Positions 30,401 through 45,091 of a DNA stretch of 64,000 bases are shown here, in pieces. The notes under the pieces are model-generated. The model saw only the letters and a list, made by a program, of their open reading frames with translations, was not told the origin of the DNA and ran no database searches. The DNA is from an uncultured bacterium (GTDB lineage Bacteria > Fidelibacterota > Marinisomatia > Marinisomatales > AB-629-J13). The first letter of the stretch is position 1. Each line of letters starts with the position of its first letter. A program made the translations under genes and the position numbers. The DNA is taken from the NCBI GenBank assembly GCA_964518835.1, contig CAZFKU010000001.1, forward strand, positions 19,923 through 83,922, in the 5' to 3' direction.

Positions 30401-30759
30401 CATATCTCAGGGTACTGTTCTGCAATATCCTGAAGTTCTGTTAAGGTTTCCTCATAATTTCTATATCCATACAAATCCCTGATTCCTCTCAAATTCTGTT
30501 TTAACTGAGATTCTGTTTGGGTTATGGTTACGACATGACCATCATTTTTAATTTCATTGTAAAGATTTTGGTCAACCACTAAATCCATATATTCCCCCGG
30601 TTTGTATGCAGACATATCATATCCCGGTGATCTGTATTTAAAAAACAGACTTTCGCTGGGTTCTTGAATGCGGATTACAAATTTTTCTGGTCCTCCTTGC
30701 AAAACACAAAAGGAAAATGAAAACCAAATGATAAAATGAATTAAAGGTGTTTTTTTCAT
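27439..30759 (-). CDS. zinc carboxypeptidase, family M14 (T9SS cargo)
   Basis: 1106 aa. Motifs GLHHSREPIS (HxxE zinc site), IVNPNGH, WRKN, GVDPNRNY and TYHSYSELV. Two CarboxypepD_reg-like beta-sandwich segments, jelly-roll at 28570-29004, cassette at 27439-28542, FPNPFNN...IVLLK tail. Confidence 0.9.
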   Translation of the reverse strand: MKKTPLIHFIIWFSFSFCVLQGGPEKFVIRIQEPSESLFFKYRSPGYDMSAYKPGEYMDLVVDQNLYNEIKNDGHVVTITQTESQLKQNLRGIRDLYGYRNYEETLTELQDIAEQYPEICQLVDLGDTWGKEYSDDGDNDYDNYHHESWGLKVSDNVEIEEDEPGTFFMGLHHSREPISVEVVMGILYHLLDNYGTDPEITGFIDNTQIWFIPIVNPNGHRIVTEEIDLWWRKNIRDNNQNGQFDTSNDYGYGTDGVDPNRNYGFQWGDVGTSDSYNSPVYHGPNAWSEPEIVAMKNLLESHHFVTGITYHSYSELVLFPFGYEMGVTAPDHDALEELAIEMAYTIPAQNGGFYTPQQSLELYPCMGTTDDYAYGVHSIFSFTIELGIQFIPPAGQIDEIVENNLEASKILLNRVNRQSITGLITNSETSDPVVAEVYVEGIDNIGNFKFPSMSDLNFGRYYRLLQEGNYDITFSAEGYETVNANVNITSNQQTILNISMNPVNLVTVTGQVTDGFSGQPINEGEVNILGEEIVYTDENGNFSLPPVYEGMYIIRSISDNYSTVEMPIEISVEDHNIEIEMYTYSTESFESSTFSDEWSTDGDSDWYFTTESVFDGMYSVRSGEIDDNQTSNLSLSVDVTAYGSIGFHYRVASEYSPSGNYFYDGLEFYINNEIMGQFQPTTEGETPWLYISYPVSPGEYTFTWSYVKDGGGGSTDMEEDCSWIDVVEFPPTNNNNPPVVTVSPEYLLGWNLVSLPVVLSDTEAGNLFPNWVDNTLYSFDGEYIQENSLEIGAGYWIRLVNEEPISFTGFENNEMQITVMEGWNMIGGLSSQIDINDGLIDNEEILLIPTLYGFIDGGYENTNMIDPGFGFWIRSLEAGEITLTNTPTAVNRQIPDISIQLKEANHIQINERSLYFGVEIPEEMEKWYSLPPLFSGIVKDVRFENESYFSEIGGKIFILNNSETQNISYNISTNENWRYSRPDHIESRILSGSGNFQVSGDISQIYLEKLQSIPEKFSVYPNFPNPFNNETSISFSIPNESFVSIKIYNIKGELIKTLMNEQKFPGLYSSKWKGMDNQSKQVSSGTYILDVSAGEYRNISKIVLLK

Positions 30760-30841: not shown

Positions 30842-32602
30842 TTATCTGAGCAGTATCATCTTTTTCGTGATAGAATTTTCAACGGTTTCCAGCTTATAAA
30901 AATAGAGTCCCGATGGTACCGGAAACCCGTATGTATCTTCCCCATCCCACAATGTGGAATACGTACCAGCAGTAAAAATTCCATCCATTAAATTTTTTAT
31001 GTACTGACCCTGAGCATTAAATACGGACAAGGTAATGTGTCCATTATTAGACAGGTCAAATTTTATAACTGTTTTTGGATTAAAAGGATTTGGAAAATTC
31101 TGGTGAAGGGAAAAATTGGCCGGTATTAAAATTTCAGTATTTTTAACTAATTGTAATTCGTCAGCAGATGGAATGACAATAGAAAGACCATTTTCCAAAG
31201 TAAATGTTTCCCCGGTTCTGGAGTTGATGAGTGTCCATTGTTCACCATTATTGATTTGACATTCAATCGTTAAAAATTCTGTTGGTGACTGTACCTCAAT
31301 TTGCCCACCTTGCTCGGAAAGTTTCATATTCCCTTCAAAACGAACATCAAAAGCTCCAAGAGGAGGTTTGGGAGGAAGAGAATATTTTATCATCTCTTCA
31401 CTGGATAAATTATCACCAAAATATAGCGAAAATCCATTAATTGAAATTTTGTTTGTAGTGGGTAATTTTTGAGTTCCGGAATTCAATTTATTAATACCAT
31501 CTTCATAAGATATATTTCCTGACCTTTCTTCAGCACTTAAATATATTTGCCCGGCACTATGTGTCCGAATCATATATCCCCTGCCGGGTTCTAATTGAGT
31601 GGCATTTGCATATCCATTAAAAAATTCATATATAGTTCCTACAATGAGAATATCATTTGGATCAGAAATCCCAGTCTCAATATCAACAGAAAAAGACAAT
31701 CCAGATATCATATTCCACCCTTCATTTAGATTCAATGTCAATTCATAAATCGGAATTCCGTTAATAACTGTAACACCGCTTTCGGCAAATCTCAACCAAT
31801 ATCCAACACCATTTTCTAACTCCTGCACCCAAATATATGCCCCCATAAATTCATATAATGTGTTTTCAATTGATTCAGGATACACACCCATTTGGCTTGT
31901 ATCTTCCATAATCAAAGGGAGTCCCACCATATTCCAATTTTCATTATGATTTATAACTAATTCAATTATTTCAGGACCGCTGGGGTTTGCTCCTTCATTG
32001 ATCCATGTATTGATTTTGGCGATGGTCAGAGGATGTAAGGGTGGCATGTTATTCGGCATTTGGTTTCCAAACGGAGGAGCGGCGGATAATTTTTGTATGA
32101 GGTTGCTACCCGGACCGTCTCCGGGAATGACGACAGCGCCATGACTGCCTCCATCCATTAATTCATCATAGGTTAATAAAGTTAAACCTCCTGCATCTCC
32201 TCCATGACAGTATCCGCTTGAACAACTTTCTTCAAAAATCGGATAAATATCTTCATCATAATCCATATCGGAATAATCCACTTCATAAGGTAGTGCTCCT
32301 TCATTAATCCATTGAGCGATCAAACCTACCTGTGTTGGTGAAAGATCATTTCCTTCCGGCGGCATATTTCCGGAATTAATTCTTTGCCACAAATTACTCC
32401 CGGTATGATTATATACAGCGATGACCATTCCGCTGTTTCCTCCTTCCATCACATTGTCATAACTGGTCAAACTTAACCCACCGCTGTTTGGGTGACATCC
32501 CGTGCAATATTGAGAAAAAATAGGCTGAATTTGTGTTTGATAATTAATGCATAAACTGACATTGGAAATGATAGACAACAGGATAAGTGCTTTTTTATTC
32601 AT
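30842..32602 (-). CDS. secreted protein with two Planctomycete-cytochrome-C-like (PSCyt1) domains (T9SS cargo)
   Basis: 586 aa with two repeats. Repeat 1: IQPIFSQYCTGCH...GGLSL.SYDNVMEGG...WINEGA. Repeat 2: IYPIFEESCSSGYCH...GGLTLLTYDELMDGG...WINEGA. CTGCH lies at 32492-32506 and CSSGYCH at 32204-32224. Cassette at 30842-31969, FPNPFNP...MILLR tail. Confidence 0.75.
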   Translation of the reverse strand: MNKKALILLSIISNVSLCINYQTQIQPIFSQYCTGCHPNSGGLSLTSYDNVMEGGNSGMVIAVYNHTGSNLWQRINSGNMPPEGNDLSPTQVGLIAQWINEGALPYEVDYSDMDYDEDIYPIFEESCSSGYCHGGDAGGLTLLTYDELMDGGSHGAVVIPGDGPGSNLIQKLSAAPPFGNQMPNNMPPLHPLTIAKINTWINEGANPSGPEIIELVINHNENWNMVGLPLIMEDTSQMGVYPESIENTLYEFMGAYIWVQELENGVGYWLRFAESGVTVINGIPIYELTLNLNEGWNMISGLSFSVDIETGISDPNDILIVGTIYEFFNGYANATQLEPGRGYMIRTHSAGQIYLSAEERSGNISYEDGINKLNSGTQKLPTTNKISINGFSLYFGDNLSSEEMIKYSLPPKPPLGAFDVRFEGNMKLSEQGGQIEVQSPTEFLTIECQINNGEQWTLINSRTGETFTLENGLSIVIPSADELQLVKNTEILIPANFSLHQNFPNPFNPKTVIKFDLSNNGHITLSVFNAQGQYIKNLMDGIFTAGTYSTLWDGEDTYGFPVPSGLYFYKLETVENSITKKMILLR

Positions 32603-32719: not shown

Positions 32720-33475
32720 TTAATCCTGATGGGGGCATGCCCACCAATGATTATCAGAGCCATTTAATCCCGGTTCTTCAGATTTACATGAAGGGATTGC
32801 AATTCCGCAACGGGGATGAAACCTGCACCCTTCAGGAAAATCATTCGATAGAGGAGGGTGTCCTTCGATATAAGCCAATTTACCAAAATTGTTCACGTTT
32901 TTATTCATCAATTCAATCAATCTTTGAGAATAAGGATGTTTTGCATTTTCAAAAATCATTTTTGCAGGACCTGATTCGACAATTTTACCGGCATACATAA
33001 TGAGAATTTTATCTGCAAATCCACGAACCGAAACCAGATCGTGGGTAATATAAATTATAGTTTTCTTTGATTTTTTTCCTATTCGTTTTAACAATTCAAT
33101 GATATGATGTTTAGTTCTCATATCCAATGCTGTTGCTGGTTCATCTGCAATCAATATATCGGGATCCCGGGCTAATGCCATGGCAATTAATATTCGTTGT
33201 CTCATTCCACCTGAAAGTTCATGGGGATACTGGGTTAATCTTTTCTTAGGGTCGGAAATCTCAAGATCATTCAATAATTGAATTAAAATTTGATTTTTTT
33301 GTTTGTTTGAAATCTTTTTCCGGAAGGCTTCTCTGATCTGGGAACCGATTTTCATAATAGGATTCAATGCATTAAGGGGATCCTGAAATACAAATGAGAT
33401 GACATAATTATCCAGTGGAGGTTTGGAATTGATATTCACTTTAGCATATTCCGGTAATAAACCAGCCAGTGCCAA
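32720..33475 (-). CDS. ABC transporter ATP-binding protein (oligopeptide/dipeptide DppD/OppD-like); the true N-terminus lies upstream of the called start
   Basis: Signature LSGGMRQR, Walker B ILIADEPATALD, H-loop ITHDL and a Cys-rich oligopeptide-type tail. Walker A GESGGGKT is encoded upstream of the TTG at 33475 in the same open frame, which is open up to 33664. Confidence 0.85.
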   Translation of the reverse strand: MALAGLLPEYAKVNINSKPPLDNYVISFVFQDPLNALNPIMKIGSQIREAFRKKISNKQKNQILIQLLNDLEISDPKKRLTQYPHELSGGMRQRILIAMALARDPDILIADEPATALDMRTKHHIIELLKRIGKKSKKTIIYITHDLVSVRGFADKILIMYAGKIVESGPAKMIFENAKHPYSQRLIELMNKNVNNFGKLAYIEGHPPLSNDFPEGCRFHPRCGIAIPSCKSEEPGLNGSDNHWWACPHQD

Positions 33476-33636
33476 TCCGGTTTGAGTTTTTCCTCCTCCA
33501 GATTCCCCGATTATCGCCGTTATTTTTCCGGTGGGAATTGTAAACGAACCATGATCAACTACAGCGAGATAATCACTCTCCCCTTTATAGGAAACGGAGA
33601 GATTTTTTATATGAATATTTTTTATATCACTAAACG

Positions 33637-34578
33637 TTACATGCCTAATCGTTTTAGACCGGGATCAATCAACCACAACCAGTCATCCATCAAAAATTCC
33701 AATCGGATAGCTAAGAGTGCGATTCTTCCCATCACCGTATATCCAAAAGCGGCACCAAATGTAATCATGAGACACCAGATTCCGACTTTAGCAGTTTTGC
33801 CAACAATACCTTTATGTTCAATTGAAAAGAAAAAATATACGATTGCACACAATACTCCCAGTACGATGATCAAACTTCTGAGGGATTCCCAAAAATCAAA
33901 TCTTCCGGCGGAATCTGTCACCCAAACAGGAATAATAGTATTACTGATTTGGCTCAGAAAATCCGCATGCAGAAAACCGACCAACCTCATCCCTGCAGTT
34001 GTTCCGATAATAAATGCCAGAGGCCATCTGCTGAGCCATGCTCCGGATGGGGACAGGCGCATCAATAATAAAATTCCCAATATAAGAGGAATCAGGTATA
34101 AATACCAGAATTCCTCTCGTTCCGGTGACAATCCGGGCATTGCCCAGGATTGAATCATTGCAGGCCATATTTTTCCGATTAAATTTGGAATAATGACTGT
34201 CCAGAAGCCAACGACCATCCAATAGGCCGCCGAAACACCAATGACAACAGATTCTGAAATTTTATAAAAGGGATTATCACGATATAGAAAAGAGAAAATA
34301 AACAGGGTAAAAAATGCCGCGACCCAAATACCGATTGTGCGGGATAAACTGAAAGTAAATTGAGTTTGATTTGGGTCTGATTCCAAAGCTTCATTATATA
34401 CTTTCGGATTAATTTTTTCGTGTTTTATCCAACGTTTTTCAGGATCCGGATTTTCGGAATTAACTTCCACTTTCTTCACGAAAACAGTTCCCATTCCGTG
34501 TTTACTGAAAACACTTCTTCCCATGAGAAGTAATCCCAAAAGAAGGACGACAATCCAAATAATTTTTTCCTTATTCAC
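33637..34578 (-). CDS. uncharacterised polytopic membrane protein (operon member)
   Basis: 313 aa: N-terminal anchor, a hydrophilic segment of about 60 aa, then at least 6 hydrophobic helices. The start overlaps the upstream stop by 4 nt. Confidence 0.6.
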   Translation of the reverse strand: MNKEKIIWIVVLLLGLLLMGRSVFSKHGMGTVFVKKVEVNSENPDPEKRWIKHEKINPKVYNEALESDPNQTQFTFSLSRTIGIWVAAFFTLFIFSFLYRDNPFYKISESVVIGVSAAYWMVVGFWTVIIPNLIGKIWPAMIQSWAMPGLSPEREEFWYLYLIPLILGILLLMRLSPSGAWLSRWPLAFIIGTTAGMRLVGFLHADFLSQISNTIIPVWVTDSAGRFDFWESLRSLIIVLGVLCAIVYFFFSIEHKGIVGKTAKVGIWCLMITFGAAFGYTVMGRIALLAIRLEFLMDDWLWLIDPGLKRLGM

Positions 34579-35450
34579 GATTGTGTTCCTCTTTTCTTCT
34601 CAGATAAATAAATGATATTTGCCAAGATGATAAGTATGATGATAAAAATATGTGCAACCAGTTGGGGACCCATTCGCCGCTGACCTTCCAGATATTTTGG
34701 ATCAGGATTTTCCCCACCATAATTTTCAACGACCAATGCCTCGTATTCAGCGGCACCTTTGATGGCGCCCAGAAGTCCCCGCAACTGCCCGGGGATGTAA
34801 GGATAGAGTAAGGGTGCCTGTACACCGGTACAACCTGCGACAAGTTGAATTTTATCAGAATATGGGGTTACCGCATACTGAACCCATTCTTTGGTCCCTG
34901 CATAACCTGCGCTGACGTTCACAATCAATTTAAAATCCTGAACACTGTGAATCTGTTTCATCATGGGAATATCATCAATATTTGTACCTTTATCATCAGT
35001 GGTGTATAATTCCCTGATGTCTGTAACGATCACTTTAATTACACCTTCATTACCTGACTTAAACCCAAGATTTACGTAATCCTTCCCGTAAACCAAATGA
35101 GGAAAGTCTGCTTTGATTACTTTATCAATATTGTCATCTATCATTTGAGGTCCAACCGGCCATAATGCCATAAAATAAATTTTTAGTTTTTTCTCACAAA
35201 CATGTTTGGTAAATGCTGTTGCCATTGGACCTAATTCACCTTCACTGGCAGGGTCAAAATCAAACGACAATAATACCGGATCTCCTTCATTTAACTCCTC
35301 AATCGCATCAAATGTATCTTTAGCTAATTTACTGGGGACTTCCGGAAATGTTTTTCCAGTTTTCCCGATGATGAAAATGGGAACAGATACAGCGATGAAC
35401 ATCATTAAGAATATCCAACGTTTATCTAAATTTGCTAATTTATTCAACAT
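34575..35450 (-). CDS. uncharacterised bitopic protein with a central soluble domain (operon member)
   Basis: 291 aa: an N-terminal TM (WIFLMMFIAVSVPIFII), a soluble domain of about 220 aa, and a C-terminal TM (VAHIFIIILIILANIIY). I recognised no motif. Confidence 0.6.
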   Translation of the reverse strand: MLNKLANLDKRWIFLMMFIAVSVPIFIIGKTGKTFPEVPSKLAKDTFDAIEELNEGDPVLLSFDFDPASEGELGPMATAFTKHVCEKKLKIYFMALWPVGPQMIDDNIDKVIKADFPHLVYGKDYVNLGFKSGNEGVIKVIVTDIRELYTTDDKGTNIDDIPMMKQIHSVQDFKLIVNVSAGYAGTKEWVQYAVTPYSDKIQLVAGCTGVQAPLLYPYIPGQLRGLLGAIKGAAEYEALVVENYGGENPDPKYLEGQRRMGPQLVAHIFIIILIILANIIYLSEKKRGTQS

Positions 35451-35452
35451 CC

Positions 35453-36154
35453 CTATTCCTCACCGGATCCTAAATAGGATCTATCCACTCCAAGGAGCAC
35501 TTTTAACGAAGTTGAAGCAATTCCAAGGGCAATTCCAATCATAATGGCACGATTCCCAGCTGTATTAAATACGCTCATAATGTACACAGTTAGGTTCTCT
35601 ATTCTGAGTCCGCTGATTGCATCAGGAAACCAGGAAGTCAAAAATACTCCTGCGAATGTTCTGCCCAGTAAAATGATGAAAGCAGTTCCGAGAAGTAGGA
35701 TAGCTTCCAAATTTTTTGCTCTAAAAGCCCTGAATGCAGCAGAAGCAATATAAAATGCCAGCATGGAAAACATGGTTGCTGTCAGCGGTTTAAAAGCATA
35801 TTCATATAACCACCAAAATGGACCTCCCATTTCTCTGTATTCACCGGACCATGCATAATCTACATAGTTGGGATTTGGATGGATACCGATTTTAAATAAG
35901 CCAAAACATAAAGTAACCAGAAATGCTACAAGCGTAATGAGTGAATATGCCCATCCTTCTCCCTGATCTGATACTTTTTTAAGGTGAATCTTCAGAAGAT
36001 TTCCTCCTCCGAGGATAAATGCAATTGCCGCAAGAATGTCAAACCAAATTGCTGTGAATTCACCCCAGCCCTGTGTCGCCGGAATAAAATAGGCAATCAC
36101 GAGAACAAATCCGCCTATAGCTGTAATCAATAATGGAACGGTTCTCTTCATCAA
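35453..36154 (-). CDS. uncharacterised polytopic membrane protein (operon member)
   Basis: 233 aa with about 6 hydrophobic helices. There is a 2-nt gap to the downstream gene. Confidence 0.6.
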   Translation of the reverse strand: MMKRTVPLLITAIGGFVLVIAYFIPATQGWGEFTAIWFDILAAIAFILGGGNLLKIHLKKVSDQGEGWAYSLITLVAFLVTLCFGLFKIGIHPNPNYVDYAWSGEYREMGGPFWWLYEYAFKPLTATMFSMLAFYIASAAFRAFRAKNLEAILLLGTAFIILLGRTFAGVFLTSWFPDAISGLRIENLTVYIMSVFNTAGNRAIMIGIALGIASTSLKVLLGVDRSYLGSGEE

Positions 36155-36160
36155 TCTACA

Positions 36161-37366
36161 TTAACCAAGAATGACATTTTTTAAATAATCCACTGCAGTT
36201 TGACAAAAAAGTCCAATAGTAGTTTCACTCCCCGAAGCAGATGCAATGGTTGATAAAATCACACCGACAATTATCCCGAATCCTACAATAATTTTTCCAA
36301 AATCCTGACCCTTAAGACTTCCTAATTGCTCTGCTTCACCGGATAAATAGGCGGAAGCAGCAAAAAATTCTTCACCAATAAGTGTATAATCACAGGCAGC
36401 GACAAAAAACGGAAGTTGTGCCGGCATAGCAGTCCCCGCAAGTTGAATTGCGCCAATGGTATTTCCTGTTTCCGCAAGCAATAGGGATTCTGCAAAAAAA
36501 GCGCCCATGTAAAAACAGGCAGCAGGTTTATCCCTCACCATCATTCCCTGCACGTAAGCCACATAACCAAACTGTTCATCTGTGACATAGTAGATCAAAT
36601 CCTGATTATAAGCATCCGGACGACCTGCAGATAAATAAGACGCCTGAATCGTTTCCCTTGCAGCTGTCATTACAAGAGAACGACTGGTGGGGACTTCCAC
36701 CTTTGCGTCATATTCCGCTGCAACTTTTGCTACTCTAGACAGAACAGTAATCCCTGCGATTGTTTGAATTTCATTCATGTCCTGAATTCCAGGAATGAAT
36801 AAAACGGATCGTCCCATTTCAGTAGCCCTTCCAACGGCTTCATCAACGGCTTCCAGACCAGCGATTTTACGAATTTTTAGTGGTTTCCCCTTACGGGCAT
36901 GATTGATCCAATAGATAACAGCTCCGCAAAACAAAAATACTATAATGCTTAGCCAGAATCTGTTACCGTCAAAAGCTTGCATTTCTGGAGTTACAATTTC
37001 ACTCATAACAGCATCGGATCGCTCACCGGAATAACCTACAGAAATCAATTTAAAAATATAATCAGTTCCATCCTTTAATTTATCAATGGTAACGGAATTA
37101 TTTTGAGCTGGTACAACAGCAGATAAGTGAAAATCATTTTTCCCGGACTCTGAAAACAAAATATGAATTTCTTTAACGGCTGGAAGCATTTCAACAGGGA
37201 TGTTCCAATTTATATCAATTTTGTCTCCATGATCCCAGGGGTGATCGGATATTTGTAAATTAACCGGTGGTGATAAGGAACTTGGATGAATGAGGTTCAT
37301 CCCGAAAAGGATAACTTGGATAATGAGGAAAATTAATTTATTTTTCAATATTCTGTCAGCTTTCAA
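36161..37366 (-). CDS. uncharacterised membrane protein: signal/anchor + fn3-like domain + TM + conserved domain + C-terminal TM (operon member)
   Basis: 401 aa. fn3-like PPVNLQISDHPWDHGDKIDINW...DGTDYIFKLISVGYSGERS. TM FWLSIIVFLFCGAVIYWI. A domain of about 200 aa (KIAGLEAVDEAVGRATEMGRSVLFIPG...). It may correspond to a DUF family, but I cannot verify that. Confidence 0.6.
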   Translation of the reverse strand: MKADRILKNKLIFLIIQVILFGMNLIHPSSLSPPVNLQISDHPWDHGDKIDINWNIPVEMLPAVKEIHILFSESGKNDFHLSAVVPAQNNSVTIDKLKDGTDYIFKLISVGYSGERSDAVMSEIVTPEMQAFDGNRFWLSIIVFLFCGAVIYWINHARKGKPLKIRKIAGLEAVDEAVGRATEMGRSVLFIPGIQDMNEIQTIAGITVLSRVAKVAAEYDAKVEVPTSRSLVMTAARETIQASYLSAGRPDAYNQDLIYYVTDEQFGYVAYVQGMMVRDKPAACFYMGAFFAESLLLAETGNTIGAIQLAGTAMPAQLPFFVAACDYTLIGEEFFAASAYLSGEAEQLGSLKGQDFGKIIVGFGIIVGVILSTIASASGSETTIGLFCQTAVDYLKNVILG

Positions 37367-40346
37367 TCAATTCAACATTTGCCCTGGGAATGGTCACTTC
37401 TTCATTATTATCAAGAATCACATGTAATACCCGTGTTTTCGTACCGGATTCAAGAATTTGAGGTTCCGGAGGCAATGCGCTTACTTTTCCGATTTGACCA
37501 AAATATGGGTCGCGAATAATACGAACAGGACAGTTTATATCCAAAACTCCTGTTAACCGTTTTTCATCTTTTTTTAATTTTTCAACTTTTTCATCGATAC
37601 GAATAATGATTTCAGGACGAATGACGCCTGCCCTAATCTGAGTGGCTCCGTTTATGGATGCATGAGCATTTTCACTTGATTTAAGTAAATCGAATGTTCG
37701 TTCCGCCATAGCAATATTTCCGAATCCCTCTGTCGTGATAACGGTGATCCCTAATTTTTCCGTACCGGTAATTGCAACACCCAGATCATAACCAAGTATT
37801 TCCTTTAAATCCTGATCATCAATTCCACCAGAGATAATTCCTGCAACTCCTATCTGCTTTGCTTTTTGTACAGCATCTGCAGTCATTCTTCCACCGCCAA
37901 CAATGATTTTTCCCTTTAATTCATCTGTTAATAAATTGTCAGTTAACAATTGGTCAGGGGATGTACACACTGTCTTTAAATCACCAAAAGTTTCCCCACC
38001 AATCCCAAAAATACCCTGTATAAAAGATACTTCTTCTTCGATTATGACACCCTGATTTTTCAAAACCTGAATCACTTTACCGGGAAGAAATCCCTTTACC
38101 TGCACGGGATGAGGCGTCCCCCTCAAAATAACCTGACCTGTAATTTCGGATATTGTTTCTACGGTGCCGGCATGTTTGCTTTGACACGAATTTTTAAACA
38201 TCCCGAATATTCCTTTTGTCTGTGCAAGTGAGTCACCAACAGTTATTTTATCACCGACTTTAACCACCATGCATTCCGGAATGTCTTTTGGAGGCAGGGA
38301 TAATAAATTGGATATATTGATGGGAATCACCTCTCCGGACATAAAGGTTTCTGCTACAACCTGCGTTGCTTCAATACTATCATTTACATTTACCAAAACA
38401 TCTCCCTCCACCGGTAATGTTCTCTTTCGCTTAACTTTAATACTGGGACTGACCGTAAGTCCCGGTGTGTAGGCATGTGCTTTTTTTGATGACTCCTTTT
38501 CTTCAGGTGGTGGTTTTGCCTTTTCTATCTCAGTCTTTTCTGTTTCCGGGTATAACTCTAAACTTTCCACCCAATGTTTCAATACGGATTTATATTGTGA
38601 CTGATCACTTTTAAGATTCAATGGTCTTCCTCTTCCATCCAAAATAAGACCGACCGTTCCGCCCCTTACCGTTTTGGATAATCGTTTTCCCTGTCCGGAA
38701 CCTGCATCAAACCCTTTTACCGGCTCAATAGTTATGTCCGCAGTTTCTCCAATATCAAGAGGTAAAAGTTTTAATTCTCCTGTATTTAAAGTACCGGATT
38801 CATTTAAAGTTTTTCCCCTGACTGTGTAGTTAAAACACGGTTTTCCTGTTTTTCCATTTCCTTTTGGTGATACGACAGTCCCCAGATAGATCAAGCAATC
38901 TCTTTCAAATACTTCCATTGCCGCTTGGGAATGAACCTGAGCAAGAACACCCAAATGAGGCATCATAAAAATACTGTCTTTTGCCAAAGTTGTGATACCT
39001 TCCGGTTGAAACGCATCAATCAGCATCATCGCAGTCTGATGCATTCGTGGAGCATGGGATAAGACTCCACCGGAAGCAACCAGCAGGTTTAACTTCATAT
39101 TGTCAACAATAGATTGTCCTCCGGTTTCCTGACTAAATGTATCGCCAACTGTCCGTTGTTGTTGGACTCCCTTTAACGTTGTTGCGAATTCTTTATGCTG
39201 TTTGTAAGCCAGTCGTAAGGCTTCCCTTGCTACTGCCTGTTCAAATATCAAGGCTTCTTTTGTTTGGGGAATGGTTGTAGGACGGATCATTTTATTTTTC
39301 ACACGATTACGAAGTTCTCGTTCGTCCATATCAATATGAACCCATCTTAAAATATTGGGCATAGTGGCTTCGGCACATACGTTGGAAATAGAATAACTCA
39401 TTCCCAGATTAGCGCTTACCGTACGATTAAAAGTTCCGTCAAATACACTGAAAACGTCTGTAGTTGCACCTCCAATATCCACACCAACAACATTGATTCC
39501 TTGTTTTTTGGCAATGGTCTGAAGAATATTTCCCACTGCCCCCGGTGTAGGCATAATGGGTGCATCTGTCCATTCCATCAGTTTGTTGTATCCAGGCGCA
39601 TGTGCCATAACGTGTTCCAGAAATAAATCATGAATGGCATCCCGTGCCGGTCCCAAGTTCTCCCTTTCAAGAATGGGTCTTAAATTGTCAACAATTGTCA
39701 GCTCATATTCATCTTCAAATAATTTAGAGATATTGTCCCGAGCATTTTTATTCCCGGCATAAATGATTGGTAAATTGTATTGTGAACCAAACCGAGGTTG
39801 TGGTTTTGCCGGAGCTATCAGCTCTGCGATTTCCATTATATGTGTCAGAGTTCCGCCATCTGTTCCGCCGGACAATAACATCATATCAGGACGGAGTTCA
39901 CGGATTCGCTGAATGCGGTCATGAGGTTTCCGCTTGTCATTGGAAGCAATGACATCCATGACGATTGCACCAGCCCCCAAAGCGGCACGTTTGGCACTGG
40001 CTGCCGTCATTTCTGCAATGACTCCAGCAACCATCATTTGCAATCCACCACCGGCGCTGGAAGTGGAAATATAAATATCACATCCGGATTGTTCGGTTGA
40101 TGGTTGAATGATCTTCCCATTTTCATCAACCAATTTTCTTTCAGCCAATTCTGATACTTCCGTTAAAGAGTTCACGACTCCAACGGTTACATCCGCAAAT
40201 GGTTCTTCAACGGAAGTGGGTGCTTCTCCCCTGTGAGTCTGCCTGAACTGACCTTCTATTTTTTGAATCAGGATTGCCTTGGTCGTGGTACTGCCGCAAT
40301 CCGTTGCTAAAATGACATTTATTTTTTCTAAATTTTTGTTACTCAT
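37356..40346 (-). CDS. GlmL/MutL-type (glutamate mutase L-like) ASKHA actin-fold ATPase fused to a barrel-sandwich-hybrid-like C-terminal region
   Basis: Likely start is MSNKNLEK at 40346 (ATGAGTAA overlap with the upstream stop; track start 40403). Phosphate-binding motifs ATDCGSTTTKAIL and VGVDIGGATTDVFSV. The C-terminal ~380 aa carries VVKVGDKITVGDSLAQTKG and GVAGIISGGIDDQDL...TTEGFG. TGA stop at 37356-37358. Confidence 0.7.
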   Translation of the reverse strand: MSNKNLEKINVILATDCGSTTTKAILIQKIEGQFRQTHRGEAPTSVEEPFADVTVGVVNSLTEVSELAERKLVDENGKIIQPSTEQSGCDIYISTSSAGGGLQMMVAGVIAEMTAASAKRAALGAGAIVMDVIASNDKRKPHDRIQRIRELRPDMMLLSGGTDGGTLTHIMEIAELIAPAKPQPRFGSQYNLPIIYAGNKNARDNISKLFEDEYELTIVDNLRPILERENLGPARDAIHDLFLEHVMAHAPGYNKLMEWTDAPIMPTPGAVGNILQTIAKKQGINVVGVDIGGATTDVFSVFDGTFNRTVSANLGMSYSISNVCAEATMPNILRWVHIDMDERELRNRVKNKMIRPTTIPQTKEALIFEQAVAREALRLAYKQHKEFATTLKGVQQQRTVGDTFSQETGGQSIVDNMKLNLLVASGGVLSHAPRMHQTAMMLIDAFQPEGITTLAKDSIFMMPHLGVLAQVHSQAAMEVFERDCLIYLGTVVSPKGNGKTGKPCFNYTVRGKTLNESGTLNTGELKLLPLDIGETADITIEPVKGFDAGSGQGKRLSKTVRGGTVGLILDGRGRPLNLKSDQSQYKSVLKHWVESLELYPETEKTEIEKAKPPPEEKESSKKAHAYTPGLTVSPSIKVKRKRTLPVEGDVLVNVNDSIEATQVVAETFMSGEVIPINISNLLSLPPKDIPECMVVKVGDKITVGDSLAQTKGIFGMFKNSCQSKHAGTVETISEITGQVILRGTPHPVQVKGFLPGKVIQVLKNQGVIIEEEVSFIQGIFGIGGETFGDLKTVCTSPDQLLTDNLLTDELKGKIIVGGGRMTADAVQKAKQIGVAGIISGGIDDQDLKEILGYDLGVAITGTEKLGITVITTEGFGNIAMAERTFDLLKSSENAHASINGATQIRAGVIRPEIIIRIDEKVEKLKKDEKRLTGVLDINCPVRIIRDPYFGQIGKVSALPPEPQILESGTKTRVLHVILDNNEEVTIPRANVELIES

Positions 40347-40695
40347 TCTCCCCACTTTTATTTTTAGGTTTCTGATTTTCAAATTCCTTTTCATAAAACT
40401 CAATTCTTTTGAATAAATAATCTATACTGTTTCGGGATTCTAAGAATTTAGAAAATTGTTGATAACCATCAGCATTCACAACAGCGGAAATAAATGGGTG
40501 AAAGAAGTGCATTATTTGGGAACCAATATAATTTAAAGGACGAAAGGACTCCAGAAATATGAGTGCAGGAGTTGTTAAATGTCTTCGTGCAATTTCACGG
40601 CAAACCTTATCCACAATGGTTTTCTGCTCTTCAGTGAAAACTGCATCCGTTTCTGATTGAATTGCAAACGCATGTTTTAATGCACCCAATTTCAT
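40339..40695 (-). CDS. hypothetical small protein (operon member)
   Basis: 118 aa with no recognised motif. The start overlaps the upstream stop by 4 nt, and the stop overlaps the ATPase start by 8 nt. Confidence 0.5.
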   Translation of the reverse strand: MKLGALKHAFAIQSETDAVFTEEQKTIVDKVCREIARRHLTTPALIFLESFRPLNYIGSQIMHFFHPFISAVVNADGYQQFSKFLESRNSIDYLFKRIEFYEKEFENQKPKNKSGENE

Positions 40696-41120
40696 TTGGC
40701 TTTATTCATCTTTGATTCAATTGTCCGAATCACATTATCTGCATTGTTTTCAAATTGCAATTCCAATCCGGTAAAATGATCCAAAAAGGACTTTTCAGAT
40801 CGGCGGTACAGAATACCTCCCCTTTTGTTTTTGGAAAACCGTTTTACTTCTGACCAATCCCTGAATATTTCACCCAAAATATACTTTTTCTTAATTCCTT
40901 TATTTGAAACTGAATAATGAACCGGAAAATAAAATTGTTTAAGGGAAAAAATTAAGATAATTACAGAAAATATTGACCAATATAAACTTTGAAAACTAAT
41001 AAACACAATGTAACCAAAAAATAGGATGATGATTCCTGAAAATATTGTCTTTTTTTTATAAAGAATCGCAGGATGACTTGTCCATGATATTTCCATGATT
41101 TCTGGGTTCTGGCATTCCAT
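40692..41120 (-). CDS. hypothetical two-TM membrane protein (operon member)
   Basis: A hydrophobic hairpin FSGIIILFFGYIVFISF / WSIFSVIILIFSL is followed by a soluble tail of about 70 aa. The ATG at 41120 lies 1 nt after the cdsA stop (the track start at 41141 is also possible). Confidence 0.5.
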   Translation of the reverse strand: MECQNPEIMEISWTSHPAILYKKKTIFSGIIILFFGYIVFISFQSLYWSIFSVIILIFSLKQFYFPVHYSVSNKGIKKKYILGEIFRDWSEVKRFSKNKRGGILYRRSEKSFLDHFTGLELQFENNADNVIRTIESKMNKAK

Positions 41121-41121
41121 T

Positions 41122-41946
41122 TTAATATCCTGCGGATACAAAGAAATAGATATAAAAATAAGTTAAGGGACTCGCAAACATGAGTGAATCAAATCTGTCA
41201 AGAACACCGCCATGACCTAACAGGAGGGTTCCAGAGTCTTTTACTCCCGCATTTCGTTTCAGCAGAGATTCTGCAAAATCGCCGGCCTGACCAAAAAATC
41301 CTGAAATTATTGCAAGAATGCACATTTCCTCACCGGTGACATCAAGCAATTGAAAATATTTTGCAATTCCATACACTATAAAACTGCTGATGAGTCCGGC
41401 TATACATCCAATCCATGACTTTTTGGGACTGATGGAAGGCAGTATTTTTTTCTTTCCCCATTTGCTTCCAAAATAAAAAGCAGCGGAATCACAACTCCAA
41501 ATGGACAGTACCATCGTTAAGGTAAAATATGTTGAGTGAACTGTATCAAAATTACGCAGTCCAATCAGGGTGCTTAGTAAAGCACCAACATAAAATATGC
41601 AGAAAAAGTTCAGTGCTAAATTTTGAGTGGGATTTGATGATTGGTAAAATATTTCCAGGAAAAAACTTAAGATTACGAACAACCCAAGAAAAAGTAAGAT
41701 GTGGAACGAAGATAAATTTGGAAGAAAATAGAAAAAATAACAAAATCCCAGTCCTCCGGAAAATGTTAACCACTTTAATAGACTTTGAGAATCAACAATG
41801 GTCATGACTAAAAATTCCCTTGTCGCCAGAATAATGACAACGGCAATAAAAATCCCGAAGAGTGGTCCGCCCATCCAGAGAAGAGCAAGAATTCCGGGAA
41901 TTCCTAAAAGATTTACAAAAGTTCTATTGCTTGATTTGATTGACAT
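41122..41946 (-). CDS. cdsA: phosphatidate cytidylyltransferase (CDP-diglyceride synthase)
   Basis: 274 aa, polytopic. C-terminal signature SPKKSWIGCIAG...GDFAESLLKRNAGVKDSGTLLLGHGGVLDRFDS. Confidence 0.9.
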   Translation of the reverse strand: MSIKSSNRTFVNLLGIPGILALLWMGGPLFGIFIAVVIILATREFLVMTIVDSQSLLKWLTFSGGLGFCYFFYFLPNLSSFHILLFLGLFVILSFFLEIFYQSSNPTQNLALNFFCIFYVGALLSTLIGLRNFDTVHSTYFTLTMVLSIWSCDSAAFYFGSKWGKKKILPSISPKKSWIGCIAGLISSFIVYGIAKYFQLLDVTGEEMCILAIISGFFGQAGDFAESLLKRNAGVKDSGTLLLGHGGVLDRFDSLMFASPLTYFYIYFFVSAGY

Positions 41947-42034
41947 TTGTTAAAAAATTAGTCGGGAAGGTACTGAATTTTGCGGATGAATTAAAAAGGA
42001 TGATTAACCAATTTATATTATCATTATTGGATTG

Positions 42035-42919
42035 TCATACCAACACCTCAATCTCTTTTTCCATTACCTCAACTTTTACTGGTGTGCTTCCCAGCATTTC
42101 ACCATCAATATTTAATGTGTTTCGATCTTCGGGAAAAATAGAAAATTTCTTTACCTGACGGTATTCCACAATAGGATCAGCGATATGCTTGCCGGTGAAT
42201 ACTTTTGGAAACATACGCAGGAGTTTCAATCTTCCTGCTTTTCGGACTATAATAAGGTCAATGAGACCGTCATCCAATTGGGCTAAAGGAGCCATTTTCA
42301 TTCCTTTTCCTGTGTACATTGTATTACAACCCATTACAAAACCAAAATCAGCAACGGTAATCCTTCCGTCAATTTCTATCCGTGCAAGCCGGGTTTTAAA
42401 TTTCAAAACTTCAAGAATAGATGCAATATTGTAACGCTGCCCGCCTAACCATCGCATTTTTTCAGCCAAAAGGTTTATATCCGTGGGCATTCCCCAGCCT
42501 ACAATATTGAATCCGTAATACGGTCCTCCTTCTGCCTCTGCCTTAAAAATATCAATTTTCCTTACTCGTTTAGTTAGAATCCTTTGGACAGCTTCTACAG
42601 GGTCCAGGCAATTCACATCGTGCATGAAAGAATTTCCTGTTCCACCGGTTATAAGGCCAATGGGAATCCGCATCCCGTCAGAACGGGTCATTAATCCATT
42701 TATCATTTCGTGCAGAGTTCCGTCACCGCCGATAGCGCAAAGTCCTGAATATTCTGATAATGGAACTTCTTTTGAAATATCCCGGGAATGTCCGGCATAT
42801 TCCGTTTCAATGATATTCAACTCAGCGTTAGCTTCCTCAAAATAAGGCTTCACTTTTTCAAGTATTTTTAAACCGGTTTTTACTCCGCCATGTGGATTTA
42901 TAATTAAGTGATATTTCAC
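42035..42919 (-). CDS. diacylglycerol/lipid kinase family protein (YegS/BmrU-like)
   Basis: 294 aa. It has the GGDGTLHEMINGL and PIGLITGGTGNSF motifs of the DAGK catalytic domain. Confidence 0.85.
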   Translation of the reverse strand: MKYHLIINPHGGVKTGLKILEKVKPYFEEANAELNIIETEYAGHSRDISKEVPLSEYSGLCAIGGDGTLHEMINGLMTRSDGMRIPIGLITGGTGNSFMHDVNCLDPVEAVQRILTKRVRKIDIFKAEAEGGPYYGFNIVGWGMPTDINLLAEKMRWLGGQRYNIASILEVLKFKTRLARIEIDGRITVADFGFVMGCNTMYTGKGMKMAPLAQLDDGLIDLIIVRKAGRLKLLRMFPKVFTGKHIADPIVEYRQVKKFSIFPEDRNTLNIDGEMLGSTPVKVEVMEKEIEVLV

Positions 42920-42925
42920 TGTCAG

Positions 42926-43387
42926 TTATTTATGTTTCATATATTGATTGTCACCCCATTCGATGACCTCAATTTTTACTTCGGTAATTCCTTGATTTAA
43001 AAAGTCAAGTTTCAGCGCTGCTCCATACGAACAATCTAAAATTCTATTTCCAACGAAGGGACCTCGATCATTTACCCTTAAAATAAGGGATTTGTCATTT
43101 GCCTTGTTTGTTACCCTTATGATTGTATTCAACGGTAATGTTTTATGAGCTGCTGTTAATCCATACATATCGAACACCTCGCCATTAGCTGTGAGTTTTC
43201 CGTGAAAATCCTTTCCATAATAAGAACTTGTTCCGTAAAAAACTTTCTGATTTTTTTTGGGTTTTGTATTTTTAGTGGATTGTCCCGGTCTTGGTTTATT
43301 GCGATTGTAACGGGGTGAATTTGAACAGGAATGAATCATGATTACCATGACAAATAAAAAATATATAATTTGTTGATAATTTTTCAT
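42926..43387 (-). CDS. rlpA: septal ring lytic transglycosylase RlpA family protein (DPBB domain)
   Basis: 153 aa. Lipoprotein-like N-terminus, then GTSSYYGKDFHGKLTANGEVFD...LTAAHKTLPLNTIIRVTN...LRVNDRGPF. Confidence 0.85.
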   Translation of the reverse strand: MKNYQQIIYFLFVMVIMIHSCSNSPRYNRNKPRPGQSTKNTKPKKNQKVFYGTSSYYGKDFHGKLTANGEVFDMYGLTAAHKTLPLNTIIRVTNKANDKSLILRVNDRGPFVGNRILDCSYGAALKLDFLNQGITEVKIEVIEWGDNQYMKHK

Positions 43388-43395
43388 TAAATCTA

Positions 43396-44307
43396 TCAGA
43401 CAACTTTTCCCACAATTTCTGTAATTGAAGAGTAATTATTTTTTTCAAGATAGGATTTTAGATCATCAATGATGGATTCTGCAATTCCGGGATCCCTATA
43501 ATTTGCAGTTCCTACCTGCACTGCAGAAGCTCCTGCAATCATATATTCCAATACATCTTCACCGTTTGTAATTCCACCAATTCCGATAATGGGAATTTTT
43601 ATCGTTTGAAATAACTTATACACCGATGCAATACCAATAGGACGTATTGCAGGACCGGAAAGACCTGAATATTTAGTGAATACATTACTTTTTCGAGTGT
43701 GAATATCAATACTCATACCCACAATTGTGTTGATAGCAGAAACTGCATCTGCACCTGCATTTTCAGCGGATTTGGCTATTTCTACTATATCTGTAACATT
43801 TGGACTCAATTTAATGATTAAAAGCCGCTCCGTTAGAGCTCTCAGTTTTTCTGTCAACTCCTGAGTCAGATCACAATTGACACCAAATTCCATACCTCCT
43901 TTCTTTATATTAGGACATGAAATGTTTACTTCATATCCAATAATATCAGAAGATACTGACTCTATTATTTTGAGTATTTCTGTATATTCACTCATGGTAC
44001 TTCCCGCAATATTCATAATGATATGGGTCCCCATAGATGAATACATCGGAATTTTTTCCTCAATGTATTGATCCACTCCAATGTTTGCTAAACCGATGGA
44101 ATTCAGCATACCCGATGGGGTTTCTACAATTCTGGGTGGAGGGTTACCTTCCCTGGGATGAAGAGTAATTGATTTTGTGACAATACCACCTAATTTTGAA
44201 ACATCGGTGATAGAATCAACCTCTGTACCGTAGCCAAAAGTTCCTGATGCAGTGAGGACGGGATTTTTAAATTTAATATTTCCGATTTTTACAGATAAAT
44301 CAGTCAA
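43396..44307 (-). CDS. pyrD: dihydroorotate dehydrogenase, class 1B catalytic subunit
   Basis: 303 aa. It has NPVLTASGTFGYG, GGIVTKSITL.PREGNPPPRI and GMLNSIGLAN. It is adjacent to, and overlaps, pyrK. Confidence 0.93.
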   Translation of the reverse strand: MTDLSVKIGNIKFKNPVLTASGTFGYGTEVDSITDVSKLGGIVTKSITLHPREGNPPPRIVETPSGMLNSIGLANIGVDQYIEEKIPMYSSMGTHIIMNIAGSTMSEYTEILKIIESVSSDIIGYEVNISCPNIKKGGMEFGVNCDLTQELTEKLRALTERLLIIKLSPNVTDIVEIAKSAENAGADAVSAINTIVGMSIDIHTRKSNVFTKYSGLSGPAIRPIGIASVYKLFQTIKIPIIGIGGITNGEDVLEYMIAGASAVQVGTANYRDPGIAESIIDDLKSYLEKNNYSSITEIVGKVV

Positions 44308-45091
44308 AAATTATATCTCCGGCATTGTACACTGGACCATCAATGCAAACCAGTGAATAGTGTTCATGGTAGCTGTGCTCTTTTTTGTTGTTATTTTGCC
44401 GTAAAATCACGCAACCCTGGCATATCCCTACTCCACATCCCATATAGCTTTCCACGGCTAATTGAGCCGGAATACTATTCCTTGTGACATAGGACTGTAC
44501 TTCTTTCAACATGGGTTCTGGTCCGCAGGCAAACACTTCCGGTATTTTTCTTTCATTTTCACAGAGTTCCACCAGAGTTATCATAACCGTTCCCTTGGTT
44601 CCGAGTGAACCATCATCTGTTGTTAAATAAATGTGTTTATCCGGTTCATGCGCATGAATATGTTCATCCTTGGTTCTTGCTCCAATGATAAGATATGTGT
44701 TTTCGGTGTTTCCATTAAATTGATTCCACAGGTTCACAATGGGAGCAAGACCTACTCCTCCCCCTACCAAAATGCGTGTGTGGTTGGAATCTAAGTTAAA
44801 AATATTCCCTAAGGGACCCAGTATATTGATTGTTTCCCCAGGTATTTTTTTAGATAAAATTGATGTACCTGTACCAAATATTTTATATATAATAGACATG
44901 GTGTTCTCATTACATCCGGCAATACTCATGGGACGGCGTAATGGATATTCCCACCCTGATTCAATCTGAATTTGAATAAATTGTCCTACTCCGTTATATT
45001 TGGAGGAAATTTCAGGAGCATAAAATTCCATTTTCCAGATTCCGGTGGCGATCTCTCTATTTTTTGTAATGGTTACATTTTCAAAAATCAT
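44300..45091 (-). CDS. pyrK: dihydroorotate dehydrogenase electron-transfer subunit
   Basis: 263 aa. FAD/NAD-binding fold (RRPMSIAG, LVGGGVGLAP, ACGPEPM) and a C-terminal Cys cluster CGVGICQGC...C for a [2Fe-2S] centre. Confidence 0.88.
   Translation of the reverse strand: MIFENVTITKNREIATGIWKMEFYAPEISSKYNGVGQFIQIQIESGWEYPLRRPMSIAGCNENTMSIIYKIFGTGTSILSKKIPGETINILGPLGNIFNLDSNHTRILVGGGVGLAPIVNLWNQFNGNTENTYLIIGARTKDEHIHAHEPDKHIYLTTDDGSLGTKGTVMITLVELCENERKIPEVFACGPEPMLKEVQSYVTRNSIPAQLAVESYMGCGVGICQGCVILRQNNNKKEHSYHEHYSLVCIDGPVYNAGDIIFD

Follow-up and report, generated by a model that had tools for sequence, protein, structure and literature searches.

What is the function of a gene cluster in which a protein annotated as glutamate mutase L is embedded among several integral membrane proteins? 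The question is raised by a locus on the minus strand of contig CAZFKU010000001.1 (GenBank assembly GCA_964518835.1), which derives from an uncultured bacterium of the Marinimicrobia. We analyzed a stretch of 64,000 nucleotides (nt) of this contig (positions 19,923 to 83,922; hereafter the window, from whose first letter all coordinates are counted). The original prediction, made from the sequence alone, had described an eight-gene operon at this locus, consisting of a giant GlmL/MutL-type ATPase, six further proteins and an OppD-like ATP-binding cassette (ABC) ATPase, and had interpreted it as an envelope-spanning machine. In the open reading frame (ORF) listing, the minus-strand ORFs of the cluster and of its ABC neighbour are all present, eight in total, between 41141 and 32720. 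Comparison with related loci showed that the conserved module consists of seven genes, which we call g1 to g7, or of eight where g3 is split. This system is real, widespread, exceptionally conserved, mis-annotated and uncharacterised. We tentatively propose that g1–g7 encode one ATP-driven machine of the cytoplasmic membrane that acts on an envelope substrate, a reading that we favour but would not yet call probable. The features of the cluster are as follows (TM, transmembrane; fn3, fibronectin type III; aa, amino acids):

40692 to 41120, minus strand: g1, two TM helices and a C-terminal domain possibly resembling bacterial PH domains; the least conserved member
40339 to 40695, minus strand: g2, a soluble, helical protein of 118 aa without a known family
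38895 to 40346, minus strand: g3, N-terminal part, an ASKHA ATPase core of the GlmL/MutL family with invariant nucleotide-binding motifs
38484 to 38894, minus strand: g3, middle part, where a beta-rich extension (about 110 aa) precedes, in the fused form, a linker rich in Pro, Glu and Lys
37356 to 38483, minus strand: g3C, a putative adaptor of 375 aa with an apparent barrel-sandwich hybrid, alpha/beta domain and KOW-like barrel
36161 to 37366, minus strand: g4, a signal-anchor, an fn3 domain (37016 to 37270), a TM helix, DUF6754 (36233 to 36985) and a C-terminal TM helix
35453 to 36154, minus strand: g5, six TM helices, predicted N-in/C-in, without a known family
34575 to 35450, minus strand: g6, a TM anchor at each end and, between them, a predicted periplasmic alpha/beta domain (about 230 aa), without a known family
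33637 to 34578, minus strand: g7, seven TM helices arranged as TM1, a variable periplasmic loop and a conserved six-TM core, without a known family

Reading of the DNA showed a 4-nt overlap between g1 and g2 (40692–40695) and the overlap ATGAGTAA between g2 and g3, which contains the ATG of g3 (40346–40344) and the TAA of g2 (40341–40339). The g3 and g4 genes overlap by 11 nt (37356–37366), g4 and g5 are separated by 6 nt (before 36154), g5 and g6 by 2 nt (before 35450), and g6 and g7 overlap by 4 nt (34575–34578). Every overlap and gap from g1 to g7 agrees with those listed in the original prediction. Based on orthologue alignments, in which the closest relatives have 997 aa, g3 most likely starts at the ATG at 40346 (996 aa) instead of the TTG at 40403. 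The same kind of alignment indicates that g1 most likely starts at the ATG at 41120, 1 nt past the stop codon of the adjacent gene cdsA. A promoter and terminator scan found sites no more often than in shuffled sequence.

We also compared this arrangement with that in other genomes. When one genome per species was scanned with exact DUF6754 patterns, at least 187 species were confirmed and 80 loci returned; further loci were reached via the ATPase, giving 87 related loci in all (referred to below by L numbers). The phyla sampled were Marinimicrobia, Planctomycetota (Phycisphaerae and Planctomycetia), Acidobacteriota, Gemmatimonadota, Verrucomicrobiota and Eiseniibacteriota, and cultured carriers include Planctomicrobium sp. 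SH661 and Thalassoglobus neptunius. When the window proteins were used as tblastn queries, the order g1-g2-g3N-g3C-g4-g5-g6-g7 (g3N being the N-terminal portion of g3) was found on one strand in essentially all loci with enough flanking sequence, representing at least six phyla. The junctions are also tight elsewhere, with medians over 22 loci of 3 nt for g5 to g6, −4 nt for g6 to g7, about 0 nt for g3C to g4 and 12 nt for g4 to g5. Given that order and strand recur in essentially all related loci of at least six phyla, the arrangement is far beyond chance. The seven non-ABC genes, whose conservation as a neighbourhood had been left as a check on the original prediction, thus co-occur and keep their order across phyla related to the Fibrobacteres–Chlorobi–Bacteroidetes group, across the Planctomycetes–Verrucomicrobia–Chlamydiae group and in other phyla. 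The family is large: each homologue search yielded at least 8000 candidates, and a g4 profile retrieved 1317 clusters (50% identity) below E=1e-30, which include some giant proteins with fn3 domains only. Most of the hits to the family came from marine and soil metagenomes. DUF6754 had no match in the plasmid or phage collections.

Next, we determined the degree of sequence conservation. Across phyla, identity to the window proteins is 69–82% for the ATPase, 65–86% for g5, 55–78% for g6, 45–69% for g7, 45–65% for g3C, 32–55% for g2 and 22–37% for g1, and the mean column identity of DUF6754 is 70% over 20 sequences from several phyla. As a yardstick, we compared one Marinimicrobia locus with one Planctomycetota locus, in which PlsX is 39% identical; the corresponding values for the core are 78% (ATPase), 79% (g5) and 71% (g6). 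The guanine-plus-cytosine content of the loci ranges from 37% to 64%; therefore, recent transfer cannot explain the similarity of the core. The ATPase and g5 are 78–79% identical between phyla, which is no lower than the 76–81% found between two Marinimicrobia (pairs compared: L085 and L086; the window and L085), whereas the neighbouring genes are far less alike within Marinimicrobia (cdsA 44%, lipid kinase 48%). The divergence of the core thus appears to be saturated, at a plateau of permitted variation under very strong constraint. A constraint above the level of PlsX suggests a machine in which nearly all surfaces are functional.

The N-terminal part of g3 belongs, judging from its sequence, to the ASKHA (actin/Hsp70/sugar-kinase) superfamily of ATPases. 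Residues 31–503 match Pfam MutL (PF13941) with E=7e-129 and 430.9 bits (cut-off 27), covering the full-length model, and the phosphate-1 (DCGSTTTK), phosphate-2 (VDIGGATTDV) and adenosine (ASGGVLSHAP) motifs are invariant in 12 sequences from several phyla. The protein scored below the NCBIfam cut-offs, with 233.1 against 475 bits for the equivalog NF040745 and 172.8 against 204 bits for the subfamily TIGR01319. Annotated GlmL proteins have about 460 aa, are 26–31% identical to g3 and can be aligned only to residues ~10–480. The beta-rich extension of about 110 aa, which carries the conserved motif GGTVGL.LDGRGRP, is missing from canonical GlmL.

The C-terminal portion, g3C, had matches below the Pfam thresholds in many of its 12 orthologues: 10 to Biotin_lipoyl, eight each to RnfC_N and KOW, and three to NQRA_N. 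Because these matches recur among the orthologues, they indicate a barrel-sandwich hybrid followed by an alpha/beta region and a KOW-like barrel. A profile search with g3C and a single-sequence search with g3N against all PDB sequences gave nothing below E=0.1. We also considered g3C as a biotin or lipoyl carrier. This is unlikely, as the conserved Lys stands in a TKGIFG context, which is neither MKM nor DKA, and is replaced by Gln in one (low-quality) sequence.

The relationship between the ATPase and g3C became clearer when the loci were compared. The two form a single polypeptide in the window, in other Marinimicrobia, in Gemmatimonadota L009, in Planctomycetota L043 and in Thermoguttaceae L054, and most Phycisphaerae, Terriglobia L017 and some Marinimicrobia encode them in a pair of adjacent genes, for about 606 and 375 aa; one ORF calling also splits them in the Verrucomicrobia and Acidobacteriota loci L019 and L045. 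Such fusion in some lineages and splitting in others links the ATPase to the adaptor in the Rosetta-stone sense. In a clade of Planctomycetaceae (L058, L066, L079, L080 and L081; Planctomicrobium/Thalassoglobus), g3C and g4 stand alone in the order FGGY kinase-ftsY-g3C-g4, and neither the ATPase nor g5–g7 was found within 10 kilobases (kb) of them. Locus L079 had no FGGY match, and less upstream sequence is available there. Since g3C and g4 are not separated even where the cluster breaks up, g3C is tied most tightly to DUF6754.

DUF6754 (PF20539) was identified in g4 with E=2e-124 and 414 bits (cut-off 27), and also above the gathering score in g4 orthologues with fn3 or beta-propeller ectodomains. 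The fn3 domain of g4 itself fell below the Pfam threshold (19.2 against 25 bits). The AlphaFold2 (AF2) model of g4, based on an alignment of 53 sequences, predicted residues 33–125 with a predicted local distance difference test score (pLDDT) above 90, and Foldseek aligned this part to fn3 structures with a target-normalised template-modelling score of about 0.8, so that at the level of the model the fn3 domain is confirmed. The TM helices of g4 were likewise predicted confidently, and DUF6754 had a pLDDT of 45–70. A Foldseek search of the g4 model against the PDB gave fn3 matches only. Among the clusters found with the g4 profile, the ectodomain preceding DUF6754 is exchangeable: in P0440, P0446, P0447, P0507, P0436, P0368 and P0371 we found none, one fn3 domain, fn3 repeats or a PQQ_2/BamB-like beta-propeller. 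DUF6754 is always C-terminal, and the TM-DUF6754-TM arrangement is nearly constant despite the exchange of ectodomains. We also noticed a DHPWDxG motif at the start of the fn3 domain (g4 residues 41–47, ~37226–37246), which is invariant in several phyla, although the fn3 domain otherwise varies; the motif could bind a metal or a partner.

Searches with g2, g5, g6 and g7 found nothing significant in Pfam, NCBIfam or the PDB sequence profiles, Pfam searches of every g5, g6 and g7 orthologue gave noise only, and profiles of g7, g6, g5, DUF6754 and g2 had no hit below E=0.1 among all PDB sequences. The hhalign comparison of g7 with g5 indicated that they are unrelated. AF2 modelling of g7 with 52 sequences reached a pLDDT of 53.7 and a predicted template-modelling score of 0.29, which we judged unusable. 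In g7, the invariant charged or polar residues D101, N102, E254, H255, R285, R292 and E294 lie in or near the membrane. In Planctomycetia (L004, 14580–16487; also L015, L043, L054 and L060), the periplasmic loop that follows TM3 of g5 is enlarged by an insertion of about 400 aa, which contains repeated helical modules of the (F/I)xGxM(T/S)xxQ(K/R)xxL type and had no significant Pfam match. The conserved motifs of g2 are HAFA...VC(R)E...RPLNY..Q. For g1, matches to bPH_6 were below threshold in nine of 12 orthologues (best E=1.5e-4), and the window protein itself had none. The positive-inside rule and hydropathy together predict a cytoplasmic location for the ATPase, for g2, for the PH-like domain and for DUF6754, and a periplasmic one for the fn3 domain of g4, for the domain of g6 and for the g5 and g7 loops.

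The genes that flank the cluster on either side in the window are as follows:

32720 to 33616, minus strand: OppD-like ABC ATPase in which the Walker A, signature and Walker B motifs are intact; a neighbour, not a conserved member
41122 to 41946, minus strand: cdsA, encoding CDP-diacylglycerol synthase, a Marinimicrobia-specific neighbour whose stop lies 1 nt before the g1 start

The ABC ATPase had been counted as the eighth member of the operon, which is not borne out by the comparison. It follows g7 only in the four closest loci, L005–L008, where its identity falls from 60% to 34% while that of the core is 74–94%, and it does not follow g7 in Planctomycetota, Acidobacteriota, Gemmatimonadota, Verrucomicrobiota or the more distant Marinimicrobia. 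Because it trails the cluster in the closest relatives only, it is a lineage-specific neighbour outside the machine. Its reading frame is open from about 33616, with an intact N-terminal strand and Walker A motif (…IKNLSVSYKGESDYLAVVDHGSFTIPTGKITAIIGESGGGKT…; region 33476–33667), and there is no ATG, GTG or TTG between the upstream TGA and 33475. The tblastn alignment of Escherichia coli OppD begins at 33616, which is an in-frame ATT. In the closest relative, L006 (13738–13776), 'AAT ATT' is kept, and a canonical start before the conserved strand is also absent. The gene is therefore likely to be initiated at ATT or ATA, or to be decaying.

On the other side, cdsA adjoins g1 in Marinimicrobia, with a DAGK-type lipid kinase gene further upstream; in other phyla, cdsA is not adjacent to g1. 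Because the cdsA stop is only 1 nt before the g1 start, cdsA is probably co-transcribed with the cluster in this genome. The upstream order pyrK-like, pyrD, DPBB (RlpA-like), DAGK-type lipid kinase, cdsA, cluster is found both in the window (41122–45091) and in L085 (3362–9159), a Marinimicrobia locus with a core 61–81% identical to that of the window and with three extra genes between the lipid kinase and cdsA. Given that this order is common to the window and the divergent L085, the adjacency of cdsA and g1 is old within the phylum. Lipid genes also occur near the cluster elsewhere. In 11 loci of Phycisphaerae/Planctomycetota, rpmF-plsX-fabH lies ~0.4–1.2 kb downstream of g7 on the same strand (with FkbH/ACP/GT4 genes upstream in four or five of the 11), and in Planctomycetia cdsA or uppS-cdsA lies 3–6 kb from the cluster. 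In one Planctomycetaceae clade, ftsY precedes g3C-g4. Flanks of at least 5 kb on each side are available for 34 loci, 11 of which have cdsA-like or plsX genes, and we estimate that chance would produce well under one such locus for two single-copy genes. The hint of a lipid connection in the original prediction, which was drawn from cdsA and the lipid kinase, thus gains modest support from cdsA, plsX or uppS-cdsA lying within a few kb in three lineages. The link of the cluster to membrane biogenesis is suggestive only.

Directly downstream of the ABC ATPase, the window encodes two large, apparently secreted proteins on the minus strand (27439–30759 and 30842–32602), the translations of which we read by eye. 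In both, the C-terminal tail (…FPNPFN…) resembles the sorting signals of type IX secretion. An HxxE motif like that of M14 carboxypeptidases is present in one, and the other has two CxxCH-like motifs inside a repeated 'GGLxLTxYDxxMxGG', as in cytochrome c domains of the planctomycete type.

How might these proteins work together? In the machine that we propose, the motor would be a divergent GlmL/MutL-type ASKHA ATPase joined to the adaptor g3C (covalently in the window). On the predicted cytoplasmic side, g3C would dock on DUF6754 of g4, and the membrane core may be composed of g4, the six-TM g5, the doubly anchored periplasmic g6 and the seven-TM g7. The proteins g1, with its two TM helices and PH-like domain, and g2 would serve as small accessory subunits. 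We speculate that closure of the ASKHA cleft, driven by ATP as in Hsp70 and the reactivases of B12 enzymes, is relayed via g3C and DUF6754 to the membrane subunits, which would then move or remodel a substrate at the interface of membrane and periplasm. The substrate class would most likely be a membrane lipid or a lipid-linked envelope precursor, and the variable periplasmic modules (ectodomains) may serve interaction. Possibly, then, the complex acts on lipids, based on the presence of cdsA, plsX or uppS-cdsA nearby in three lineages. If so, the cluster may represent a new class, namely an ASKHA-powered (not ABC, P-type, AAA+ or rotary) multi-subunit complex of the inner membrane for envelope or lipid biogenesis in many environmentally abundant diderm phyla (among them Marinimicrobia, Planctomycetota, Acidobacteriota, Gemmatimonadota and Verrucomicrobiota), built of four protein families without characterised relatives; we regard this wider claim, taken as a whole, as doubtful enough to be offered as a suggestion.

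The proposal builds on the gene order, junctions, conservation, domains and motifs described above, on the fusion and splitting of g3 and on the absence of mutase and Opp partners (see below), together with the predicted topology. Several points weigh against it. The interaction of the products, the docking order, the coupling to ATP and the substrate are matters of inference only. The AF2 confidence was low for DUF6754 (pLDDT 45–70) and for g7 (54); either the folds are completed only in the assembled complex, or the alignments, which consist of close relatives, are poor in covariation, and these are the likely reasons. At the sequence level, none of the components is like a known transporter, flippase or lipid-binding fold, and no outer-membrane partner was found. 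The lipid-gene cases are clustered by lineage and perhaps reflect three or four independent events, the lipid-gene neighbours are housekeeping clusters that could be adjacent by accident, and the Acidobacteriota loci examined have no lipid-gene association and unrelated flanks. Finally, the sole reported role of the GlmL family is the reactivation of a soluble B12 enzyme (PMC4682846), not transport.

That role raises the alternative that the cluster encodes a reactivase or chaperone, in which the ASKHA ATPase, with g3C as its swivelling or adaptor domain, would repair a membrane enzyme or load its cofactor, with the catalytic centre in DUF6754 and/or g7. In that case the machine would be no translocase but an enzyme equipped with its own ATP-dependent subunit for maintenance. 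The density of invariant polar and charged residues in both DUF6754 and g7, as in active sites, is consistent with this. However, the cluster has no B12-binding motif and no linked gene for a radical-SAM protein, an adenosyltransferase or another cofactor function, conserved clusters of Cys or His are absent, and whole-protein conservation of the ATPase at ~80% is unusual for an accessory chaperone. We therefore consider a reactivase unlikely, although it deserves some weight. The same level of conservation, reached over the whole surface between phyla, is typical of polymer-forming proteins, and together with the actin fold it speaks for a cytoskeletal system, in which g3 would polymerise like MreB, FtsA, MamK or ParM and the membrane proteins would anchor the polymer for cell shape, division or invagination. 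Planctomycetes have no FtsZ, so that this explanation is of particular interest there, and the system is abundant in Planctomycetota. However, it also occurs in Acidobacteriota and Gemmatimonadota, in which division is of the ordinary FtsZ-based type, and the ATPase is fused 1:1 to an adaptor domain. Moreover, the glutamate-mutase (GlmL) subfamily is counted among the non-polymerising members of the actin superfamily (PMC5597319). A cytoskeletal role thus seems rather improbable.

The adaptor is relevant to a further possibility, namely ion translocation of the Rnf/Nqr kind. Here, g3C would be a peripheral subunit of the RnfC/NqrA type, g5 and the g7 core would form an antiparallel pair of six-TM subunits like RnfA/E or NqrD/E, and g6 would be a bitopic subunit like RnfG/NqrC. 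The number and topology of the subunits are similar, the predicted orientations of g5 and the g7 core are opposite, and the sub-threshold matches to RnfC_N (eight of 12) and NQRA_N (three of 12) in the g3C orthologues point in the same direction. In contrast, hhalign gave g3C a probability of 6% against E. coli RsxC, for the hairpin only, and nothing for g5 against RsxA or g7 against RsxD. In addition, there are no Pfam matches to Rnf-Nqr, NQR2_RnfD_RnfE or FMN_bind, and neither conserved Cys motifs that could hold Fe-S centres nor signatures of NADH or flavin binding are present. Based on hhalign values of at most 6% against RsxC, RsxA and RsxD, we rejected an Rnf/Nqr identity, which is the least probable explanation of all. 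Nearly as improbable is that the OppD-like ABC ATPase forms a second motor of the same machine. This gene is on the same strand about 20 nt downstream of g7 (if it starts at the ATT at 33616), and the window encodes neither a permease nor a binding protein to go with it; however, its restriction to L005–L008 and its identity of 34–60%, compared with 74–94% for the core, argue against membership. Compared with these explanations, we favour the machine of the cytoplasmic membrane described above.

If this proposal is true, then it could define a new energy-coupling principle at membranes; we know of no membrane translocase or remodeller of this composition that is powered by an ASKHA protein. 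DUF6754 and the three unnamed families gain concrete partners. The recurrent proximity of cdsA, plsX and uppS touches on how the envelope is built and supplied in poorly studied diderm phyla. The labels in current use, 'glutamate mutase L / methylaspartate mutase' and 'fibronectin type III domain-containing protein', are mislabels that may mislead metabolic reconstructions of Marinimicrobia and Planctomycetota.

We finally compared the cluster with known systems. The canonical context of glmL is glmS-glmL-glmE-mal. With Peptoclostridium queries, tblastn found no match to GlmS, GlmE or methylaspartate ammonia-lyase in the window or in the 87 loci, of which 56 were matched by the GlmL query. Given that the mutase partners were not found and that the NCBIfam cut-offs were not reached, a glutamate mutase system is ruled out. 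An Opp/Dpp peptide importer is likewise ruled out: the window has a single OppD/F-like ATPase, which is below all NCBIfam cut-offs, and no OppA, OppB or OppC homologue, that is, no permease or binding protein. The original prediction was therefore right that neither the GlmL nor the oligopeptide-transporter annotation explains the cluster. It had also allowed that the membrane components might prove to be homologues of a characterised transporter or secretion system, and none was detected with Pfam, NCBIfam, PADLOC or the PDB sequence profiles. Its description as envelope-spanning is not shown, since our predictions comprise a cytoplasmic ATPase, an inner-membrane core and periplasmic domains, with no outer-membrane component identified. 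Overall, what the original prediction observed is borne out and strengthened, and its interpretation is supported in part: the co-occurrence of the non-ABC genes and the mis-annotation stand, the lipid hint has modest support, and the ABC membership does not stand.

Anti-phage defence was also considered. The only PADLOC matches were two weak ones of the CARF type, to g2 (E=6e-5 and 1.6e-3), with none for g5–g7; together with the lack of DUF6754 in the plasmid and phage collections, this speaks against a known defence system, and we rejected that idea. Full-text literature searches found no paper on the cluster or on DUF6754.

Several actin-fold proteins resemble the ATPase of the cluster in architecture. 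The diol dehydratase reactivase DdrA/PduG and EutA are ATPases of the Hsp70/actin fold that work on a partner protein as conformational devices driven by ATP. DdrA joins its ATPase core with extra swivelling or insert domains, and the partners of such reactivases are soluble B12 enzymes. Unlike these, the cluster has no linked B12 enzyme or cofactor-recycling genes. Other ASKHA proteins dock on inner-membrane platforms, namely PilM on PilN/O/P, GspL/EpsL, FtsA, and MreB on MreC/D. The likeness consists in a cytoplasmic actin-fold protein that is combined with bitopic or polytopic membrane proteins bearing periplasmic domains; however, g3 lies in the GlmL branch and the membrane subunits belong to unrelated families, and no product had a Pfam or NCBIfam match to a PilM/GspL-type ASKHA protein or to the partners PilN, PilO or GspM. 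The nearest relative in sequence is GlmL/MutL, which is described in the literature only as a chaperone for the reactivation of glutamate mutase (PMC4682846). The ASKHA core of g3 fills PF13941, has the same nucleotide-binding motifs and shares 26–31% identity with annotated GlmL proteins, but g3 has in addition the beta domain of about 110 aa and the 375-aa g3C, and it always stands among membrane-protein genes. As for g3C, it appears to open with a barrel-sandwich hybrid hairpin and to be a peripheral cytoplasmic module, like RnfC/NqrA (PF13375, PF05896) and the biotin/lipoyl domain (PF00364), but its matches are all below the gathering scores and it has no Fe-S or flavin motifs. Thus, except for the ATPase fold, the system lies outside every characterised system tested. 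For DUF6754 (PF20539), the family entry holds no functional information, and to this entry our analysis adds operon partners, variable ectodomains and extreme conservation.

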